DNA of 32,448 nt from Escherichia phage HZP2. Shown one piece after another: positions 1 to 9,431 of the stretch. Both the position numbers and the translations under genes were made by a program. Location of the stretch: sequence record NC_048164.1; one strand, given 5' to 3'. Under the pieces are notes generated by a model. That model was not told where the DNA came from, did not search any database, and saw only the letters and a list, made by a program, of their open reading frames with translations. The stretch's first letter is position 1, and each line of letters begins with the position of its first letter.

Positions 1-174
1 CCTTTCGGCGGTAACAACTGGCGCGGCGACTACGCGCTTGGTGGTGGCGAGGTAATGAGTGGTATTACTATCGACCAGAAAGGTGGGAACACTAGGATGT
101 TCATTGATGGAATCTTTGCGAGAGCTATTTGGATTAGAGTGTTCAATGGACAATCTCGAGCCATATGGTCCCAA
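1..174 (+). CDS. tail fibre protein (gene 17 position), C-terminal fragment; 5' end lies outside the window
   Basis: Frame-1 open from window start to TGA at 172-174, directly upstream of the holin/terminase block where gene 17 sits in T7-like genomes. The C-terminal residues (..TRMFIDGIFARAIWIRVFNGQSRAIWSQ) do not match the T7 gp17 C-terminus as I recall it (..SRSVPNAIMVENE), suggesting a different receptor-binding tip. Confidence 0.55.
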
Positions 175-193
175 TGATTAATAAGGAGATAAT

Positions 194-598
194 ATGATAC
201 GTGTTTATGAGAAGTTTAAATGGGCCAAGGGTGAGCGCCTACAGGATGGGCGCTTCATAGCGAACATTGAGGACTCTACCGGCGAATCGTGGTATGACAT
301 TATGGTCAAACTCGATGAACTAGGAGAGGATCGCTGGGTAATTGGCACTCAACAATCTGGTTTCGTTTCGTGGGCCACAAACGGAAGCGTGAACGCTTCG
401 GCTCTTCCTGTAGATGGTGGCGATGTTATCGTGATTGACTCCATCCCTGAGGACATGGAGAAAGACTTCCGGTACTGGTGGTGGGATGGTTCGCAATTCT
501 TCAAGCAGGATAATGTCAAGTCAGAACAGAAGGAGCGCACAAAGGAGGACATTATGGCTGACCTCCTGAAACTTCAAGAAGAACTCAAGACACTATAA
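194..598 (+). CDS. hypothetical protein, possible tail-fibre assembly chaperone (Tfa-like); no T7 counterpart
   Basis: ATG at 194 preceded by AAGGAGA RBS; 134 aa. T7 has no gene between 17 and 17.5. The C-terminal segment (FRYWWWDGSQFFKQDNVKSEQKERTKEDIMADLL) loosely resembles the W-x-(D/N)G-x-W ... acidic/coiled C-terminal motif of lambda Tfa / P2 gpG-type chaperones; recognised by eye only. Confidence 0.5.
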   Translation: MIRVYEKFKWAKGERLQDGRFIANIEDSTGESWYDIMVKLDELGEDRWVIGTQQSGFVSWATNGSVNASALPVDGGDVIVIDSIPEDMEKDFRYWWWDGSQFFKQDNVKSEQKERTKEDIMADLLKLQEELKTL

Positions 599-607
599 GG
601 AGGTTAA

Positions 608-811
608 ATGTTATCTTTTGACTTCAACAACGAGGTCGTTAAGGCTGCACCGATTATTGGTACAGGGGTCGCTGACGGGGCGGCCCGACTATTTTGGGGG
701 CTATCGTTAAACGAATGGTTCTACGTTGCTGCTATCGCCTACACAGTGGTTCAGATTGGTGCCAAGGTAGTCGATAAGATGATTGACTGGAAGAAAGCCA
801 ATAAGGAGTGA
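608..811 (+). CDS. 17.5: type II holin (T7 gp17.5 homolog)
   Basis: 67 aa, MLSFDFNNEVVKAAPIIGTGVADGAARLFWGLSLNEWFYVAAIAYTVVQIGAKVVDKMIDWKKANKE, near-identical to T7 gp17.5; RBS TAAGGAGGT upstream. Confidence 0.93.
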   Translation: MLSFDFNNEVVKAAPIIGTGVADGAARLFWGLSLNEWFYVAAIAYTVVQIGAKVVDKMIDWKKANKE

Positions 812-816
812 TGAAT

Positions 817-1086
817 ATGGAAAAAGATAAGAGCCTTATCACGTTCTTAGAGATGTTGGACACTGCGATGGCACAGCGTATGCTTGCTGACCTTTCTGAC
901 CCTGAGCGGCGTTCTCCACAACTCTATAACGCCATCAACAAACTGTTAGACCGTCATAAGTTCCAGATTGGTAAGTTGCAACCTGATGAGCACATCTTGG
1001 GTGGCCTCGCCGGTGCTCTGGATGAGTACAAGTCTAAAGTTGGATACGATGGTCTCACTGATGACGACATTTACACTTTGCAGTGA
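817..1086 (+). CDS. 18: terminase small subunit (T7 gp18 homolog)
   Basis: 89 aa starting MEKDKSLITFLEMLDTAMAQRMLADLSD..., matching T7 gp18. The ORF-track start at 808 is a GTG extension; the ATG at 817 matches the T7 N-terminus. Confidence 0.92.
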   Translation: MEKDKSLITFLEMLDTAMAQRMLADLSDPERRSPQLYNAINKLLDRHKFQIGKLQPDEHILGGLAGALDEYKSKVGYDGLTDDDIYTLQ

Positions 1087-1130
1087 TATACTCAAGGTCT
1101 CCTACGGGTGGCCTTTATGAATGTCATTGG
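1086..1130 (+). promoter_or_regulatory. RNase III processing site (R18.5-like stem-loop)
   Basis: Motif ..ATACTCAAGGTCTCCTACGGGTGGCCTTTATGAATGTC.. is the conserved T7 RNase III site architecture (ACTCAAGGTC ... GGCCTTTATGA). Confidence 0.6.
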
Positions 1131-1145
1131 CATTTAGGAGGTACT

Positions 1146-1586
1146 ATGAGTCTATTCAATAAGTTGTTACCTTGGGTTCTAGCTGGGATGCTATTCGGAT
1201 GGGGATGGCACCTTGGGGCAGACTCAATGGACGCCAAGTGGAAACAGGAGGTACAGAATGAGTACGTTAAGAGAGTTGAGGCTACAGCGAGCACTCAAAG
1301 AGCACTCAATGAAATATCGGCTAAGTATCAAGAAGACCTTGCCGCGTTGGAAGGGAGCACTGATAGGATTATTTCTGATTTGCGTAGCGACAATAAGCGG
1401 CTGCTCGTCAGAGTCAAAACTACCGGAACCTCCGATGGTAAGTGTAGATTCGAGCCTGATGGTCGAGCCGAACTTGACGACCGAGATGCTAAACGTATTA
1501 TCGCAGTGACCCAGAAGGGTGACGCGTGGATTCGTGCGTTACAGGATACTATTCGTGAACTACAACGTAAGCAGGAAACCGAGTAA
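1146..1586 (+). CDS. 18.5: Rz-like i-spanin (T7 gp18.5 homolog)
   Basis: MSLFNKLLPWVLAGMLFGWGWHLGADSMDAKWKQEV... matches T7 gp18.5; start chosen at the ATG at 1146 with GGAGG RBS rather than the ORF-track GTG at 1083. Confidence 0.9.
   Translation: MSLFNKLLPWVLAGMLFGWGWHLGADSMDAKWKQEVQNEYVKRVEATASTQRALNEISAKYQEDLAALEGSTDRIISDLRSDNKRLLVRVKTTGTSDGKCRFEPDGRAELDDRDAKRIIAVTQKGDAWIRALQDTIRELQRKQETE
1258..1509 (+). CDS. 18.7: Rz1-like o-spanin lipoprotein (T7 gp18.7 homolog), embedded out of frame in 18.5
   Basis: MSTLRELRLQRALKEHSMKYRLSIKKTLPRWKGALIGLFLICVATISGCSSESKLPEPP... with lipobox (ISGC) and Pro-rich tail; embedded position typical of Rz1. Confidence 0.85.
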   Translation: MSTLRELRLQRALKEHSMKYRLSIKKTLPRWKGALIGLFLICVATISGCSSESKLPEPPMVSVDSSLMVEPNLTTEMLNVLSQ

Positions 1587-1595
1587 GGAGGTAAT

Positions 1596-3356
1596 GTGTC
1601 TACTCAGTCCAATCGTAATGCGCTCGTTGTGGCGCAACTAAAGGGTGACTTCGTGGCGTTCCTGTTCGTCTTATGGAAGGCGTTAAACCTACCAGTGCCA
1701 ACTAAGTGTCAAATCGACATGGCTAAGGTGCTGGCGAATGGAGACAACAAGAAGTTCATCCTACAGGCTTTCCGTGGTATCGGTAAGTCATTCATCACAT
1801 GTGCGTTCGTTGTGTGGTCCTTATGGAGGGACCCTCAGTTGAAGATACTTATCGTATCAGCTTCTAAAGAACGTGCAGACGCTAACTCCATATTCATCAA
1901 GAACATCATTGACCTGCTGCCGTTTCTCAGTGAGTTGAAGCCGAGACCCGGACAGCGTGACTCTGTGATTAGTTTTGATGTTGGCCCCGCTAGTCCTGAC
2001 CACTCGCCTAGTGTGAAATCAGTAGGTATCACTGGTCAGTTAACAGGTAGTCGTGCTGATATTATCATTGCGGATGACGTTGAGATTCCGTCTAACAGTG
2101 CTACTATGGGTGCCCGTGAGAAGCTATGGACTCTCGTTCAGGAGTTCGCTGCGTTACTTAAACCACTACCTACGTCTCGTGTTATCTACCTTGGTACCCC
2201 TCAGACTGAGATGACTCTCTATAAGGAACTTGAGGATAACCGTGGGTACACAACCATTATCTGGCCTGCTCTGTATCCAAGGACACACGAAGAGAACCTC
2301 TATTACTCACAGCGTCTTGCTCCTATGCTACGTGCTGAGTACGATGAGAACCCTGAGGCACTCGCTGGGACTCCTACAGACCCTGTTCGGTTCGACCGAG
2401 ACGACCTGCGTGAGCGTGAGTTGGAATACGGTAAGGCTGGCTTTACGCTACAGTTCATGCTTAACCCGAACCTGAGTGACGCTGAGAAGTACCCTCTGAG
2501 GCTCCGTGACGCTATCGTAGCGGTCTTAGACTTAGAGAAGGCACCGATGCATTACCAGTGGCTTCCGAACCGTCAGAACATCATTGAGGACCTTCCTAAC
2601 GTGGGCCTTAAGGGTGACGACCTACATACATACCATGAGTGCTCGAATAACTCTGGTCAGTATCAACAGAAGATTCTGGTCATTGACCCAAGTGGTCGTG
2701 GTAAGGACGAAACAGGTTACGCTGTGCTGTACACCCTCAACGGTTACATCTACCTAATGGAAGCTGGTGGTTTCCGTGACGGTTACTCCGATAAGACCCT
2801 TGAGTTGCTCGCTAAGAAAGCCAAGCAATGGGGAGTCCAGACGGTTGTCTACGAGAGTAACTTCGGTGATGGTATGTTTGGTAAGGTATTCAGTCCTATC
2901 CTTCTTAAACACCACAACTGCGCGATGGAGGAGATTCGTGCTCGTGGTATGAAGGAGATTCGTATTTGTGATACCCTTGAGCCAGTCATGCAGACTCACC
3001 GCCTTATCATTCGCGATGAGGTCATTAGGGCCGACTACCAGTCAGCTCGTGACGTAGACGGTAAACATGACGTTAAGTATTCACTATTCTACCAGATGAC
3101 CCGTATCACCCGTGAGAAAGGTGCTCTGGCTCATGATGACCGATTGGATGCCCTTGCGTTAGGCGTTGAGTATCTCCGTGAGTCCATGCAGTTGGATTCC
3201 GTTAAGGTCGAAGGTGAAGTGCTTGCTGACTTCCTTGAGGAACACATGATGCGTCCTACAGTTTCTGCTACCCACATCATTGAGATGTCTGTAGGAGGAG
3301 TTGATGTGTACTCTGAGGACGATGAGGGATACGGTACGTCTTTCATTGAGTGGTGA
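1596..3356 (+). CDS. 19: terminase large subunit / DNA maturase B (T7 gp19 homolog)
   Basis: 586 aa, near-identical to T7 gp19 ([24 protein letters not shown]...TSFIEW). GTG start at 1596 directly after GGAGG; T7 gene 19 also appears to start with GTG. Confidence 0.95.
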
Positions 3357-3393
3357 TTTATGAGGCCAAGGAAGGCCGCTTTAAGGAGGTAAT

Positions 3394-3837
3394 ATGATAA
3401 GCAAGAAGAAGTATGTTATCGATAAGGAGACTGGTTGCTGGAACTTTAGGGGATGTAAGACGAAGACTGGTTATGGTCGCATTCGTGTGAACGGAGTCCA
3501 TTGGATGGCCCACAGGTATTCCCTGAGTTGTCATCTAGGCAGACCGATAGCTGACGGAATGGTTGTGATGCACCTATGTGATAATCCTTCATGTGTTAAC
3601 CCTGAGCACCTTAAGGAAGGGACTCAGAAGGAGAACATAGAGGACTGCATCTCAAAAGGTCGTGCAACTAAGTCCACAGGTAAACGTGATGCAACTAAGA
3701 GAGACCCTAGCGAGGAACGTAAGGCTATAGTGATTCGAAGATACCATAAAGGCTGGACCGCAACGTCCATAGCGAGATACCATAAGCTCTCTGTGGCGTG
3801 GGTAAAGAGGGTCATTGAGGATTACCTAAGTGATTGA
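3394..3837 (+). CDS. free-standing HNH homing endonuclease (HNH motif plus C-terminal helix-turn-helix)
   Basis: 147 aa; GCWNF..GYGRIRVNG..HR....VVMHLCDNPSCVNPEHL is an HNH_3-type motif, same architecture as T7 gp7.7/gp5.3. Strong RBS TAAGGAGGT 7 nt upstream. T7 has no gene at this position. Confidence 0.85.
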   Translation: MISKKKYVIDKETGCWNFRGCKTKTGYGRIRVNGVHWMAHRYSLSCHLGRPIADGMVVMHLCDNPSCVNPEHLKEGTQKENIEDCISKGRATKSTGKRDATKRDPSEERKAIVIRRYHKGWTATSIARYHKLSVAWVKRVIEDYLSD

Positions 3838-3888
3838 TATTTGAAATTAGTGATACAGGTCTAAGTATATGATTACAGACCATTATTC

Positions 3889-3911
3889 TAATTCGACTCA
3901 CTATAGGGAGA
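3889..3911 (+). promoter_or_regulatory. T7 RNAP promoter (phiOR-like, right-end replication promoter)
   Basis: TAATTCGACTCACTATAGGGAGA, 21/23 match to the T7 class III consensus; positioned upstream of gene 19.5 as phiOR is in T7. Confidence 0.8.
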
Positions 3912-4002
3912 AGCCTACCTAAAGATTACTATAAGACTTAAAGTTACCTATAAGGTAGGTTGTTATTATTGTTAATACAACCAACATAAAGGGAGGAGAC
4001 TC

Positions 4003-4152
4003 ATGTTCCGCTTATTGTTGAACCTACTGCGGCATAGAGTCACCTATCGCTTTCTTGTGGTACTTTGTGCTGCCCTTGGGTACGCATCGCTTAATGGAGA
4101 CCTCAGTTCACTGGAGTCTGCCGTTTGCTCTTTACTCACTTGTAGTGATTAA
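4003..4152 (+). CDS. 19.5: gp19.5 homolog (small protein of unknown function)
   Basis: 49 aa MFRLLLNLLRHRVTYRFLVVLCAALGYASLNGDLSSLESAVCSLLTCSD, near-identical to T7 gp19.5; GGGAGGAG RBS. Not in the ORF track because it is under 60 aa. Confidence 0.85.
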   Translation: MFRLLLNLLRHRVTYRFLVVLCAALGYASLNGDLSSLESAVCSLLTCSD

Positions 4153-4392
4153 GGTCTTCCTGACCGACTGACGGCTCACCGAGGGATTCAGCGGTATGAT
4201 TGCATCACACCACTTCATCCCTATAGAGTCAAGTCCTAAGGTATACCCATAAAGAGCCTCTAATGGTCTATCCGTAAGGTCTATACCTAAAGATAGGCCA
4301 TCCTATCAGTGATGCCTAAAGAGTCGCTTAGAGAGGGCCTAAGGAGTCCCTAGAGGGTCCTTTAAAATATACCATAAAAATCTGAGTGACTA

Positions 4393-4562
4393 TCTCACAG
4401 TGTAAGCGCCCAAGGTTCCCCCCATAGGGGTCCCCAAAGTCACTCCTTTGGAGTGCCGGACCTTGAGGTGGACTTAAAGTGGGTCTTGAGGTGGACCGAA
4501 GGAGGGTCCTAGTGATACCTTGGGGAGTGTCTCCTTGTCCCTATCTGTTCAGCCTCTTAAAG
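4393..4562. repeat. genome terminal repeat (single copy, as in a concatemer junction or circularised assembly)
   Basis: Begins TCTCACAGTGTA.. like the T7 terminal repeat and ends near ..CCCTATCTGTTCAGCCTCTTAAAG; flanked upstream by CCTAAAG/CCTAAGG-type motifs and downstream by the left-end repeats and phiOL. Boundaries are inferred by T7 analogy and cannot be fixed from one copy. Confidence 0.6.
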
Positions 4563-4644
4563 TCACCTCCTAACGTCTATCCTAAGTCAACACCAACAGA
4601 ATAACCATAAAGGCCCCTCAAGTCAATACCCCATCTTAAAGATA

Positions 4645-4692
4645 ATCCTAACGACCATCCTAACGACCATCCTAACGACCATCCTAACGACC
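4645..4692. repeat. tandem direct repeat, 4 perfect copies of 12-bp unit ATCCTAACGACC (plus a degenerate fifth)
   Basis: Directly visible: ATCCTAACGACC x4 at 4645-4692 followed by ATCCTGATGATG; lies in the left-end non-coding region where T7 has an array of short CCTAAAG-containing repeats. Confidence 0.95.
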
Positions 4693-4747
4693 ATCCTGAT
4701 GATGCCTTGTCGTTACTTATAAAGAGATGACCAATAATCATTGTCTT

Positions 4748-4770
4748 TAATTCGACTCACTATAGGGAGA
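4748..4770 (+). promoter_or_regulatory. T7 RNAP promoter (phiOL-like, left-end)
   Basis: TAATTCGACTCACTATAGGGAGA, identical 23-mer to the phiOR-like promoter at 3889-3911; located just upstream of the host-promoter array like T7 phiOL. Confidence 0.8.
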
Positions 4771-4827
4771 GGAGACTACTTAAAGAGGGCCAGAGAGAGA
4801 TTAATCAAAATAATTTAAAAAAGAGTA

Positions 4828-4856
4828 TTGACTTAAAGAGCCTTAAGGGTTACTAT
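4828..4856 (+). promoter_or_regulatory. host sigma70 early promoter A1
   Basis: TTGACT - 17 bp - TACTAT; context AAAAGAGTATTGACTTAAAG matches the T7 A1 promoter. Confidence 0.8.
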
Positions 4857-4955
4857 TCATCTCGTCAACGGGACAACGGCCTAAAAGCCACTCCCCGAGA
4901 TACCGGGGTCAACCGGATAAGTAGACAGCTTGATAAGTCATACGAAAAACAAGCA

Positions 4956-4985
4956 TTGACAACACGCAGTAACATGCAGTAAGAT
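4956..4985 (+). promoter_or_regulatory. host sigma70 early promoter A2
   Basis: TTGACA - 18 bp - TAAGAT; context ACGAAAAACAAGCATTGACAACA matches T7 A2. Confidence 0.8.
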
Positions 4986-5079
4986 ACACAGCGCTAGGTA
5001 ACACTAGCAGCGCCAACCGGACGAACGGTGTCTTCTAGGTGACTCAAGCGCACCACGGCACACAAAGCAAACAAAACGG

Positions 5080-5108
5080 TTGACAACATGCAGTAAACAC
5101 GGTACGAT
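5080..5108 (+). promoter_or_regulatory. host sigma70 early promoter A3
   Basis: TTGACA - 17 bp - TACGAT; context AACAAAACGGTTGACAACATG..GGTACGATGTAC matches T7 A3. Confidence 0.8.
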
Positions 5109-5226
5109 GTACTACAAGCAGTAAGGGCGTAGGGATAGGAACCGAGAAACCTGCCCGTGACCCGCCAAGGATAAGGCACTAGCCATGAGTCGAATTCGGT
5201 CACTCATCGCATAAAAGAATAACAGG

Positions 5227-5255
5227 TTGACAGCCTCCTTTAAAAGCTGTAATAT
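5227..5255 (+). promoter_or_regulatory. additional host sigma70-type promoter (fourth in the tandem array)
   Basis: TTGACA - 17 bp (GCCTCCTTTAAAAGCTG) - TAATAT; sits ~147 bp downstream of A3, continuing the ~125-bp spacing of A1/A2/A3. Its downstream context (GTACCCACGAAATGACGGAACAGTGAGTCACCACACTGAAAGG) corresponds to the sequence that follows A3 in T7. Confidence 0.6.
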
Positions 5256-5443
5256 GTACCCACGAAATGACGGAACAGTGAGTCACCACACTGAAAGGTG
5301 ATGCGGTCTAACGAAACCTGACCAAAGACGCTCTTTAACAATCTGGTAAACGGCTCTTGAGTGTACACACGTAGCGGATAACTCAAGGGTATCGCAAGAT
5401 GCCCTTTATGATATCCACTAACAACTCTATGAGGTAACACACA

Positions 5444-5806
5444 ATGGCTATGTCTAACATGACTTATAACAACGTTTTCGATCACGCTTACGAAATGCTG
5501 AAAGAAAATATCCGTTATGATGACATTCGTGACACTGATGGTCTTGGGGACGCAATCCACATGGCAGCCGATAGCGCCGTTCCGCACTATTACAGCGACA
5601 TTTTCAGTGTAATGGCAAGCGAGGGCATTGACCTTGAGTTCGAGGATTCTGGTCTTATGCCGGACACCAAGGACGTAATCCGTATCCTGCAAGCACGTAT
5701 CTATGAGCAATTAACGATTGACCTCTGGGAAGACGCTGAGGACTTACTGGACGAGTATCTCGAGGAAGTCGAAGAGTCAGAAGAGTACGAGGAGGACGAA
5801 GAGTAA
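5444..5806 (+). CDS. ocr: Ocr (overcome classical restriction), DNA-mimic anti-restriction protein (T7 gp0.3 homolog)
   Basis: 120 aa [32 protein letters not shown]...acidic C-terminal tail ([14 protein letters not shown]); near-identical to T7 gp0.3. Confidence 0.95.
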
Positions 5807-6779: not shown

Positions 6780-9431
6780 ATGAGCACGATTAACATCGCT
6801 AAGAACGATTTCTCTGACATCGAACTAGCCGCTATCCCGTTCAATACTCTGGCTGACCACTACGGTGAGCGTCTAGCTCGCGAGCAGTTGGCCCTTGAGC
6901 ATGAGTCTTACGAAATGGGTGAAGCACGTTTCCGCAAGATGTTTGAGCGTCAACTCAAGGCCGGTGAGGTTGCAGACAACGCTGCCGCTAAGCCTCTTAT
7001 TACTACCCTGCTCCCCAAGATGATTGCACGCATCAACGATTGGTTTGAGGAAGTGAAAGCTAAGCGTGGCAAACGTCCAACCGCTTTCCAGTTCCTGCAG
7101 GGAATCAAGCCGGAATCTGTAGCGTATATCACCATTAAGACTACTCTTGCTTGCCTAACGAGCGTGGACAATACAACCGTTCAGGCTGTAGCAAGCGCCA
7201 TCGGACGGGCTATCGAGGAAGAAGCTCGCTTCGGTAGAATCCGTGACCTAGAAGCTAAGCACTTCAAGAAAAACGTTGAGGAACAACTAAACAAGCGCGT
7301 AGGGCACGTCTATAAGAAGGCATTCATGCAGGTAGTCGAGGCTGATATGCTCTCTAAGGGTCTACTAGGTGGCGAGGCGTGGTCTTCATGGCACAAGGAA
7401 GACTCCATTCACGTAGGTGTGCGCTGCATTGAGATGCTCATTGAGTCCACCGGAATGGTTAGCCTGCACCGCCAAAATGCTGGCGTAGTGGGCCAAGACT
7501 CTGAGACTATCGAGCTGGCACACGAATACGCTGAGGCTATCGCAACCCGCGCTGGGGCACTGGCTGGCATCTCTCCGATGTATCAGCCTTGCATAGTCCC
7601 TCCTAAGCCTTGGACTGGTGTAACTGGTGGTGGCTACTGGGCCAACGGTCGCCGCCCTCTGGTACTGGTACGCACTCACAGCAAGAAGGCACTGATGCGC
7701 TACGAAGATGTTTACATGCCTGAGGTATACAAGGCGATCAACATTGCGCAAAACACCGCATGGAAAATCAACAAGAAAGTCCTAGCAGTCGCCAACGTGA
7801 TAACCAAGTGGAAGCACTGCCCAGTCGAGGACATCCCTTCGATTGAGCGTGAAGAACTCCCGATGAAACCGGAAGACATCGACACGAATCCTGAGGCTCT
7901 CACCGCTTGGAAACGTGCTGCCGCTGCTGTGTACCGTAAAGACAAGGCACGCAAGTCTCGCCGCATCAGCCTTGAGTTCATGCTTGAGCAAGCCAATAAG
8001 TTTGCGAACCGTAAGGCCATCTGGTTCCCTTACAACATGGACTGGCGTGGCCGTGTGTACGCTGTGTCAATGTTTAATCCGCAAGGTAACGACATGACCA
8101 AAGGTCTGCTGACACTGGCTAAAGGTAAACCAATCGGCAAGGAAGGATTTTACTGGCTGAAAATCCACGGGGCCAACTGCGCGGGGGTCGATAAGGTTCC
8201 ATTCCCTGAGCGCATCAAGTTCATTGAGGACAACCACGATAATATCATGGCGTGCGCTAAGTCTCCACTTGAAAACACTTGGTGGGCTGAGCAAGATTCT
8301 CCGTTCTGCTTCCTCGCGTTCTGCTTTGAGTACGCTGGGGTACAGCACCACGGATTGAGCTACAACTGCTCGCTGCCGCTGGCGTTCGATGGGTCTTGCT
8401 CTGGCATCCAGCACTTCTCCGCAATGCTCCGCGACGAGGTAGGTGGTCGTGCTGTTAACCTACTGCCTAGCGAAACCGTTCAGGACATCTACGGGATTGT
8501 TGCCAAGAAAGTCAACGAGATTCTGCAAGAGGATGCAATCAACGGGACCGATAACGAAGTGATTACCGTGACCGATGAGAACACGGGCGAAATCTCTGAG
8601 AAAATCAAGCTGGGTACTAAAGCACTGGCTGGTCAATGGTTGGCCTACGGTGTGACCCGTAGCGTCACTAAACGTTCAGTCATGACGCTGGCCTATGGTT
8701 CCAAAGAGTTCGGCTTCCGTCAGCAAGTTCTGGAGGATACCATACAGCCAGCTATTGATTCAGGCAAAGGTCTGATGTTCACCCAACCCAATCAGGCCGC
8801 TGGGTACATGGCTAAGCTGATTTGGGAATCTGTGAGCGTTACCGTAGTGGCTGCTGTAGAGGCCATGAACTGGCTCAAGTCTGCCGCTAAGTTGTTGGCT
8901 GCTGAGGTCAAAGATAAGAAGACTGGTGAGATTCTTCGCAAGCGTTGCGCGGTGTATTGGGTAACTCCTGATGGCTTCCCTGTGTGGCAGGAATACAAGA
9001 AGCCTATTCAGACTCGCTTGAACCTGATGTTCCTCGGTCAGTTCCGCTTACAGCCAACCATTAACACTAACAAGGATAGTGAGATTGATGCACACAAACA
9101 GGAGTCCGGTATTGCCCCTAACTTTGTACACAGCCAAGACGGTAGCCACCTGCGTAAGACTGTAGTGTGGGCACATGAGAAGTACGGAATCGAATCGTTT
9201 GCATTGATTCACGACTCCTTCGGGACCATTCCGGCTGACGCTGCCAACCTATTCAAGGCTGTTCGTGAGACTATGGTTGACACCTACGAGTCCTGCGATG
9301 TACTTGCAGACTTCTACAACCAGTTCGCTGACCAGTTACATGAGTCTCAACTTGATAAAATGCCAGCACTTCCGGCTAAAGGTAGCTTGAATTTACGAGA
9401 CATCTTAGAGTCAGACTTCGCGTTTGCGTAA
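6780..9431 (+). CDS. 1: single-subunit DNA-directed RNA polymerase (T7 gp1 homolog)
   Basis: 883 aa, near-identical to T7 RNAP over its whole length (MSTINIAKNDFSDIELAAIPFNTLADHYGERLAREQLALEHESYEMGEARF ... HDSFGT ... DFAFA). Confidence 0.98.
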   Translation: MSTINIAKNDFSDIELAAIPFNTLADHYGERLAREQLALEHESYEMGEARFRKMFERQLKAGEVADNAAAKPLITTLLPKMIARINDWFEEVKAKRGKRPTAFQFLQGIKPESVAYITIKTTLACLTSVDNTTVQAVASAIGRAIEEEARFGRIRDLEAKHFKKNVEEQLNKRVGHVYKKAFMQVVEADMLSKGLLGGEAWSSWHKEDSIHVGVRCIEMLIESTGMVSLHRQNAGVVGQDSETIELAHEYAEAIATRAGALAGISPMYQPCIVPPKPWTGVTGGGYWANGRRPLVLVRTHSKKALMRYEDVYMPEVYKAINIAQNTAWKINKKVLAVANVITKWKHCPVEDIPSIEREELPMKPEDIDTNPEALTAWKRAAAAVYRKDKARKSRRISLEFMLEQANKFANRKAIWFPYNMDWRGRVYAVSMFNPQGNDMTKGLLTLAKGKPIGKEGFYWLKIHGANCAGVDKVPFPERIKFIEDNHDNIMACAKSPLENTWWAEQDSPFCFLAFCFEYAGVQHHGLSYNCSLPLAFDGSCSGIQHFSAMLRDEVGGRAVNLLPSETVQDIYGIVAKKVNEILQEDAINGTDNEVITVTDENTGEISEKIKLGTKALAGQWLAYGVTRSVTKRSVMTLAYGSKEFGFRQQVLEDTIQPAIDSGKGLMFTQPNQAAGYMAKLIWESVSVTVVAAVEAMNWLKSAAKLLAAEVKDKKTGEILRKRCAVYWVTPDGFPVWQEYKKPIQTRLNLMFLGQFRLQPTINTNKDSEIDAHKQESGIAPNFVHSQDGSHLRKTVVWAHEKYGIESFALIHDSFGTIPADAANLFKAVRETMVDTYESCDVLADFYNQFADQLHESQLDKMPALPAKGSLNLRDILESDFAFA

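Follow-up and report, generated by a model that had tools for sequence, protein, structure and literature searches.

The left end of the Escherichia phage HZP2 genome (NC_048164.1) raises the question of what occupies the interval between the third early host promoter, A3, and the first early gene, ocr, where an extra segment is encountered at positions 5109-5262 of the window (the whole stretch of 32,448 nt that was analysed). It can be asked whether this segment is a peculiarity of HZP2, whether it adds a promoter to the early array, and what its non-promoter half may do. The reading favoured here, to which we assign a probability of about 0.7, is that the segment is a two-part early-transcription cassette common to many Studiervirinae, composed of a conserved leader block that may act as RNA and a putative fourth promoter (P4), with three-promoter arrays such as that of T7 plausibly arising by loss.

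The early promoter array of HZP2 and its extra segment

The window is a permuted T7-like genome in which the right-end genes, including a 586-aa gene 19-type ORF, reach approximately 4390, and the T7 left-end motif TCTCACAGTGTA begins at 4393. From there the elements follow in the order phiOL, four sigma70-type promoters, ocr and gene 1 (6780-9431). The T7-type phage promoter phiOL (~4749-4771) is located just before the host-type promoters. The first early gene, ocr (gene 0.3; 5444-5806, plus strand), is a 120-aa ORF that aligns with T7 gene 0.3 and whose counterpart is annotated as Ocr in the records of relatives. Over 4750-5450 the nearest database relative is Escherichia phage HZ2R8, at 94% identity.

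The four promoters are all on the plus strand. A1 (4828-4856, TTGACT-17-TACTAT, 9/12 in the promoter scan) and A2 (4956-4985, TTGACA-18-TAAGAT, 10/12) align with their T7 namesakes, and A3 (5080-5108, TTGACA-17-TACGAT, 10/12) would start at ~5116 if, as at T7 A3, transcription begins at the eighth nucleotide after the -10 hexamer. These are followed by P4 (5227-5255, TTGACA-17-TAATAT, 10/12), for which a start at 5262-5264 is predicted. The -35 hexamers begin at 4828, 4956, 5080 and 5227, giving spacings of 128, 124 and 147 bp; repeat family D2, which links the core of A3 with that of P4, yields the same 147 bp between them. Within 4780-5443, three plus-strand promoters scoring at least 10/12 were observed against 0.05 expected from dinucleotide shuffles, none of 1000 of which reached three. 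The earlier note had described four tandem early promoters at ~125-147 bp spacing, with a TTGACA-17-TAATAT element at 5227-5255; the scan recovers this element, and the scan and the repeat family together bear out the tandem layout.

The wild-type T7 reference (NC_001604) has annotated starts at 498 (A1), 626 (A2) and 750 (A3), with gene 0.3 at 925. When the left ends are aligned, HZP2 carries ~147-150 bp (roughly 5117-5262) that have no counterpart in T7, where the sequence runs straight from GATGTACCAC into ATGAAACGACAGTGAGTC; the extra block of HZP2 sits between the two, and in HZ2R8 GATGTACCAC is found at both block ends. The distance from the A3 start to the ATG of the first gene is 175 nt in T7 versus ~328 nt in HZP2. 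The A3 cores of the two phages differ by two mismatches, and P4 is therefore the additional promoter; the sequence that follows P4 in HZP2 is the sequence that follows A3 in T7. The earlier note had proposed both the extra ~150-bp segment after A3 and this likeness of downstream context, and the alignment confirms the two proposals as well as the note's picture of the T7 A3 to 0.3 interval. Direct repeats of ATGTAC (family D2, plus strand) are located in the -10/start regions of A3 (5107-5112) and P4 (5254-5259).

P4 and the distribution of the cassette

P4 points rightward and occupies genome coordinates 835-863, which places it in the first ~1 kb, after phiOL and ahead of the ocr start codon (ATG at 5444). 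An A-rich stretch, AAAAGAATAACAGG, adjoins its -35 hexamer on the upstream side, and A1-A3 are likewise A-rich there. Among 19 distinct copies the -35 TTGACA is unchanged, the spacer is 17 bp except for one of 16 bp, and the -10 is TAAGAT, TAAGCT or TAATAT (the last in the HZP2 window only), with positions T1, A2 and T6 kept in 19/19.

On these features P4 is very probably a fourth early host promoter. It is highly improbable that it is a chance or decayed consensus match unused by RNA polymerase, which would leave three working promoters as in T7. Such a reading can point to a -10 hexamer that matches the consensus at only 4/6 positions in HZP2 and at 3/6 in the TAAGCT copies of Berlinvirus and Kayfunavirus, to the absence of an extended -10 (TG), and to the full-text literature, in which transcription-start data for P4 were found for none of the carriers. 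However, a perfect -35 would then have stayed invariant in 19 distinct copies next to a spacer of optimal length (17 bp) and a -10 that always keeps T1, A2 and T6. In addition, P4 equals A2 and A3 in its match to the consensus (10/12 each), and the T7 orthologs of these two are annotated E. coli promoters. In the record of phage BA14 the curators labelled the P4 ortholog (834-870) 'host RNAP promoter'. Phages N30, YenP_WX1 and K1F have each retained a P4-type -10 in their single last promoter, and phage PDP351P2 keeps a P4-type core as one of only two promoters.

In T7, ~850 bp of the genome enters the cell, and host transcription from A1-A3 then pulls in the remaining early region (PMC4517105); because T7 brings in this length before host transcription, P4 would stand at about the entry boundary. 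As the gene-proximal member of an A1, A2, A3, P4 array used by E. coli RNA polymerase, P4 would give a fourth initiation site ~147 bp past A3, upstream of a shared leader with a boxA-type element. The array would fire right after the leading ~850 bp has entered, and its transcription would both express the early genes and draw the remaining early region into the cell. P4 may also alter the strength of early transcription. As a fourth promoter it matters little, being one more copy of a well-understood element that is already in public genomes.

The segment 5109-5262 was found by a sensitive search in 44 GenBank phage records, at 92.6-98% identity and in one place per record. The cassette is polymorphic, with four Studiervirinae genera contributing at least 44 carrier genomes in the database, and the segment is not a peculiarity of this genome. 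The carriers include HZ2R8, CICC 80001, IME390, EG1 and C5 in Teseptimavirus, BA14, 285P, P483 and P694 in Berlinvirus, and SH3, ST31 and Hafnia phage yong1 in Kayfunavirus, along with one phage classified in Przondovirus, Klebsiella phage K35PH164C3. Further carriers are 13 IMG/VR contigs and five metagenome contigs, all of them T7-like genomes of ~40 kb. Most relatives, including T7, have no cassette, and its presence is patchy inside genera (Berlin, K1F and T7 are without the block). The first genes differ among carriers (ocr, SAM hydrolase and others), and the cassette is therefore taken to be self-contained.

In the record of BA14 (EU734171) the label 'host RNAP promoter' is given four times, to 460-496, 595-631, 685-722 and 834-870, and the four-promoter layout had therefore already been recognised by the BA14 annotators. 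This annotation is the sole prior record of the layout that came to light: full-text searches turned up neither a description of a fourth early promoter nor one of the leader, and host promoters are not a topic of the SH3 paper. The fourth promoter cassette is thus an already known kind of element, real and not new. A sensitive-mode search of 5,426 E. coli genomes and 72,556 plasmids gave no match to the block, and a host or plasmid origin was rejected on this ground. A single GTDB hit (Flavobacterium), one soil contig and two IMG/VR contigs were set aside as chance 20-mer or gapped-pattern matches without wider similarity.

Conservation and possible function of the leader block

The remainder of the cassette consists of a conserved non-promoter leader block of ~102-105 nt (5125-5226, plus strand), which lies upstream of P4 and would occur only in transcripts started at A1-A3. 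When HZP2 and BA14 are aligned (23.7 kb at 71% identity), the best stretch of 110 columns is 5137-5245, at 97.3%, and the next best, inside a gene, reaches 90.9%. For HZP2 and SH3 (70% overall) the block stretch again stands at 97.3% and the next best at 89.1%, and for BA14 and SH3 the corresponding values are 96.4% and 86.4%. In three inter-genus pairs with an overall identity of ~70%, the leader block is the top 110-nt stretch genome-wide.

Divergence was expressed as differences per site over all pairs among 19 distinct carriers, within and between genus groups. The leader block differs by 2.0% within groups and 5.0% between them, compared with 4.4% and 11.6% for the P4 core, 6.3% and 45.8% for the A3-like core, and 17% and 48.6% for the 174 nt of leader that come next. 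At both levels the block changes ~10-fold slower than adjacent non-coding DNA. In the Berlinvirus group it differs by 1.0% and both flanks by ~27%; among Teseptimavirus carriers there is no extra conservation of the block (2.2% versus 1.3% for the downstream leader).

Horizontal exchange certainly contributes to the identity of the block, and it is possible, if rather doubtful, that exchange explains all of it. Under that explanation the leader would be functionless and would have hitch-hiked with a promoter cassette recently passed between phages by homologous recombination during co-infection. This agrees with the patchy presence of the cassette in each genus and with K35PH164C3, which is classified as Przondovirus but is mosaic at the locus, its leader being of Teseptimavirus type (89.5% identity). 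From genus to genus the P4 spacer hardly changes whereas the A3 spacer is free, a pattern that fits recent exchange as easily as function. Searches for diverged copies (three viral scans, a metagenome scan and a genome scan) gave near-identical copies only, within the limits set by their exact seeds, and the stability of the predicted leader fold is at chance level. Recent transfer accounts less well for the genus-specific substitutions in the block, for a between-group divergence (5.0%) that exceeds the within-group value (2.0%), for the Berlinvirus block at 1% beside flanks at ~27%, and for variable sites that avoid disrupting the predicted pairs. Within and between groups alike, block divergence amounts to roughly 0.1 of flank divergence, which a slower rate, that is, constraint, fits better than a single recent transfer.

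If the leader is constrained, the constraint may act on its RNA. The segment contains an inverted repeat (5182-5210, plus strand) with arms GCCATGAGT and ACTCATCGC and inner sequence CGAATTCG; the 9-nt arms (5182-5190/5202-5210) are complementary at 8/9 positions around an 11-nt loop, with an EcoRI site, GAATTC, at 5192-5197 inside the hairpin. The inverted repeat that the earlier note had reported around GAATTC does exist, one base away from where it had been placed. Its predicted energy is -9.2 kcal/mol. An equal or better inverted repeat arose in 163 of 2000 shuffles of the 154-nt segment (8%), and significance of the repeat by itself was rejected for this reason. The hairpin, in which the earlier note had seen a possible regulatory structure, draws its support from conservation and one compensated pair, and not from its pairing alone.

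Three helices are common to the MFE fold and the alignment fold, namely 5125-5139 paired with 5150-5163 (helix 1, 5125-5163 on the plus strand, with loop AACCGAGAAA), 5164-5166 with 5175-5177, and 5182-5193 with 5200-5210. Folding of the segment, to which the earlier note had pointed, was not more stable than that of shuffles (MFE z -1.05 for 5115-5226; 30 of 200 shuffles as stable), and an exceptional RNA fold was rejected. Across 16 distinct sequences the 25 predicted pairs are formed in 99.3% of cells, and two are compensated. At pair 5125/5163, 11 copies have G-C and five (Kayfunavirus) have U-A; pair 5185/5207, which is never broken, is A-U in seven copies, G-U in six and G-C in three; and the C or U at 5128 always stands opposite G. 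Each of the two compensated pairs looks like a single evolutionary event, most predicted pairs never vary, and one G-U pair is broken (G/A) in three copies. The covariation score was reached by one of 500 shuffles, for a structure derived from this same sequence. The G-U states suit plus-strand RNA only, and not the minus strand or duplex symmetry, and the two compensated pairs hint at a plus-strand RNA fold.

The block may instead be conserved as DNA, although this is unlikely. It would then serve as an upstream activating region of P4, covering -37 to -140 as in rrn P1, in which the A-rich 5212-5223 would be UP-like and a dimeric factor, from host or phage, would recognise the palindrome near -67. 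Block and promoter P4 always move as one unit, A-rich sequence adjoins the -35 here as it does at A1-A3, the palindrome is centred at ~5195-5196, ~67 bp upstream of the predicted P4 start, and the symmetric change from A-T to G-C keeps the dyad. However, the commonest variant of this arm pair is G-T (6/16 copies), which is asymmetric in a duplex and acceptable in RNA, and the C/U opposite G at 5128 likewise suits RNA. The P4-type core of PDP351P2 occurs without the block, no known factor consensus was recognised in the block by eye, and factor sites rarely constrain ~100 consecutive bases.

Coding functions account poorly for the block. Two minus-strand ORFs, at 5112-5207 and 4994-5203 (31 and 69 aa), are broken by a 1-nt indel in BA14 and P483, and a protein-coding block was rejected; where the records of ESh1, ESh6 and Baskent_phicoli_1 show a 'hypothetical protein' across the block, this is probably over-annotation. 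A leader peptide of nine codons, MSRIRSLIA (ATG at 5185, TAA at 5212-5214), whose translation would be the conserved property, is very unlikely. A candidate RBS, TAAGG (5172-5176), precedes its ATG by 8 nt; position 5185 is A or G, which leaves ATG or GTG in 16/16 distinct copies, and the stop is kept in 15/16. Yet EG1 has lost the stop (TAA to CAA), three copies carry an Ile-to-Thr change, and the start codon and part of the RBS are buried in predicted helices. The peptide ORF covers only 30 of the ~102 conserved nt and therefore cannot explain the conservation of 5125-5184.

Several established kinds of element were also considered. An Rfam 15 scan of 4600-5600 with E values up to 10 gave nothing in 5109-5262, and ARAGORN found no tRNA or tmRNA in the block. 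An intrinsic terminator or attenuator was rejected, as the hairpin at 5182-5210 is followed by ATAAAAGAATAA without a T-run, and a scan of both strands of 5109-5262 gave no terminator-like site. An RNase III site of the T7 R0.3 type was rejected as well, the hairpin of ~10 pairs including a mismatch being too short (~20 bp or more are needed). Descent of the block from a duplicated A1-A2 or A2-A3 spacer had been suggested by the motifs CCGAGAnACC and GGATAAG, which seemed by eye to be common to the block and the spacers; it was rejected, as local alignment scored no higher than shuffles (z 0.15 and -0.33). By eye, no convincing match to CRP, LexA, Fis or IHF sites was seen in the block.

Downstream of all four promoters the common leader carries a boxA-type element, GCTCTTTAACA (5330-5340, plus strand), which agrees at every position with the boxA consensus GYTCTTTAANA (PMC5725501); nowhere else in the 32-kb window does this consensus occur. 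Nine phages from four genera carry the element unchanged. In T7 the R0.3 RNase III site presumably lies at ~890, in a region that aligns downstream of the block, at ~5350-5420 in HZP2. Since the conserved boxA and R0.3, the latter assumed from T7 homology, separate the cassette from ocr, RNA of the cassette would probably be cleaved from the ocr mRNA. The earlier note had placed the segment in the 5' leader of that mRNA; in the mature leader it would then probably be absent.

Our working view is that the leader has stayed almost unchanged wherever the cassette occurs most likely because it works as a structured plus-strand RNA that folds into two or three hairpins. A bolder reading, less likely than not, would make it a sequence-constrained functional ncRNA of T7-group phages, produced by the upstream promoters alone during the first minute after infection and near-invariant across four genera whose genomes otherwise share ~70% identity. 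Such an RNA might act on the host polymerase as it transcribes, shield the long early leader that is not translated, or counter host defence. The non-promoter half of the cassette, as the most conserved stretch between genera in three pairs, is a cheap and well-defined experimental target, and the near-invariance of ~102 nt of leader across genera is the modestly interesting feature that merits a bench experiment.

Array size variation and comparison with known systems

The number of early promoters varies among carriers. Four are found in HZP2, HZ2R8, BA14, 285P and P483, three in K35PH164C3, and two strong predicted promoters in the Kayfunavirus carriers; P4 is always the last, ~147 bp after an A3-like promoter. 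The array of the Teseptimavirus PDP351P2 is limited to A1 and a second promoter in which the upstream region of A2 runs into a P4-type core. In the three-promoter phages N30 and YenP_WX1 the last promoter consists of the A3 -35 and spacer with a P4-type TAAGAT -10, followed by the P4-type downstream sequence GTACCACGAAATGACGGAACAG; T7 and AH67C600_Q5 retain the TACGAT of A3. In K1F, a Kayfunavirus without the block, an A3-like spacer is joined to a P4-type TAAGCT and to P4-type downstream sequence. The joints in N30, WX1, T7 and K1F map to the ATGTAC repeat region, with crossover points that vary by phage.

T7 tends to delete between short repeats. The chimeric last promoters look like deletion joints between promoter repeats, and for this reason the cassette is read here as old and repeatedly lost, and not as an insertion specific to HZP2; the three-promoter state of T7 would plausibly be a loss. 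The earlier note's description of the segment as 'inserted' is therefore probably wrong as to polarity, given that three-promoter relatives have these joint-like promoters. The cassette is flanked by short direct repeats, one in the -10/start region of each of A3 and P4, and recombination between promoter repeats could delete it or other units to give arrays of two, three or four. The early promoter array of T7-like phages would in this manner vary in copy number between two and four, and the textbook T7 would probably represent a reduced form, which bears on the modelling and engineering of early transcription and of transcription-driven genome entry.

An example of a cis-acting leader RNA that modifies RNA polymerase is put of phage HK022. 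Leaders of the put type resemble the predicted leader RNA of HZP2 as promoter-proximal, two-hairpin RNAs of ~70-100 nt, made soon after initiation, with conserved loops and stems; the HZP2 leader has no sequence or model match to them (no Rfam hit), and membership is not claimed. The E. coli rrn control region offers a second parallel, as both systems have strong tandem sigma70 promoters that read into a leader with a perfect boxA consensus and a conserved region of ~100 bp upstream of a promoter. The likeness is one of layout alone, the HZP2 block being without sequence similarity to E. coli genomes.

The closest counterpart is the fourth promoter of BA14, which is orthologous to P4. Block and promoter are ~94-97% identical to those of HZP2, and the promoter lies ~149 bp after an A3-like promoter and just as far from the left end of the genome (834 versus 835). 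The two differ in the -10 hexamer (TAAGCT in BA14, TAATAT in HZP2), in a 1-nt insertion in the predicted loop of the BA14 block, and in the first gene, which is of the 0.3 SAM hydrolase type in BA14 and ocr in HZP2. The BA14 record annotates the promoter alone and is silent on the conserved leader.

The T7 promoters A1-A3 share with P4 their orientation, their location between phiOL and gene 0.3, their hexamer quality, the A-rich upstream flank and a similar tandem spacing of roughly 125 bp. The P4 spacer is unrelated in sequence to the spacers of A1-A3, and paralogy of the inter-promoter spacers was not detectable; A3 and P4 have in common the -10-to-start motif (G)ATGTAC(C)AC. T7 has three such promoters and nothing matching 5117-5262, whereas HZP2 has four.

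Variation of the early promoter array

Within the promoter array, the fourth early host promoter (P4, 5227-5255) carries the -10 hexamer TAATAT, which among the 19 distinct copies of the cassette is found in the window only, the remaining copies having TAAGAT or TAAGCT. The P4 region of the window also contains an extra C (5250-5262, GTACCCAC) that is encountered elsewhere only in EG1 and in one metagenome contig (L031).

The copy number of the early promoter array differs between phages. The Teseptimavirus PDP351P2 has two promoters (587-739 of its record), A1 and a P4-type core that is fused to the A2 upstream region. The last promoter is chimeric in N30 and YenP_WX1 (both at about 400-480) and in K1F (568-597), where an A3-type -35 element and spacer are joined to a P4-type -10 element and downstream sequence. 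These fused and chimeric promoters look like deletion joints with differing crossover points. Klebsiella phage vB_Kpl_K35PH164C3 is a Przondovirus by classification, and its first gene is a 0.3 of the SAM hydrolase or methyltransferase type; at 592-945 it has the cassette and downstream leader, which share 88-89.5% identity with the Teseptimavirus-type leader of the window. Its left end is a clear mosaic.

Small "hypothetical protein" genes have been annotated over the cassette in GenBank records ON528715 (ESh1), ON528719 (ESh6) and PP766721 (Baskent_phicoli_1). The indel pattern among the homologs argues that these are over-predictions.

Elements of the early leader

The early leader contains, 3′ of all four promoters, a boxA-type element (GCTCTTTAACA, 5330-5340) that matches the consensus GYTCTTTAANA (PMC5725501) perfectly; no second match occurs anywhere in the 32 kb of the window. 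This element is unchanged across nine phages from four genera, including T7, and its perfect match and invariance suggest Nus-factor (rrn-type) handling of the early transcripts made by the host polymerase.

A 9-nt perfect complement, GGTGACTCA and TGAGTCACC (5038-5046 with 5279-5287), flanks A3, the cassette leader and P4, and an 8/9 pairing of 5279-5287 with the right arm of the conserved hairpin (GGTCACTCA, 5202-5210) is also feasible. Long-range or alternative pairing is possible in transcripts that start at A1 or A2. The invariant loop of the same hairpin holds an EcoRI site (GAATTC, 5192), located on the DNA that is first to enter the cell; the 32.4-kb window has three such sites (5192, 14190 and 29604), whereas about 8.4 would be expected from base composition.

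Layout of the window and left-end repeats

The order of the window is permuted, with right-end genes at 1-4392, among them a gene 19-type ORF of 586 aa (1596-3356), followed directly by a T7-type left end that begins at 4393 with TCTCACAGTGTA. This arrangement resembles either a junction in a concatemer or an assembly that has been circularised. The left-end non-coding region includes a 23-mer present twice in tandem (4462-4508) and 4.4 exact tandem copies of ATCCTAACGACC (4645-4697), and these repeats are probably the counterpart of the series of short repeats near the T7 left end.
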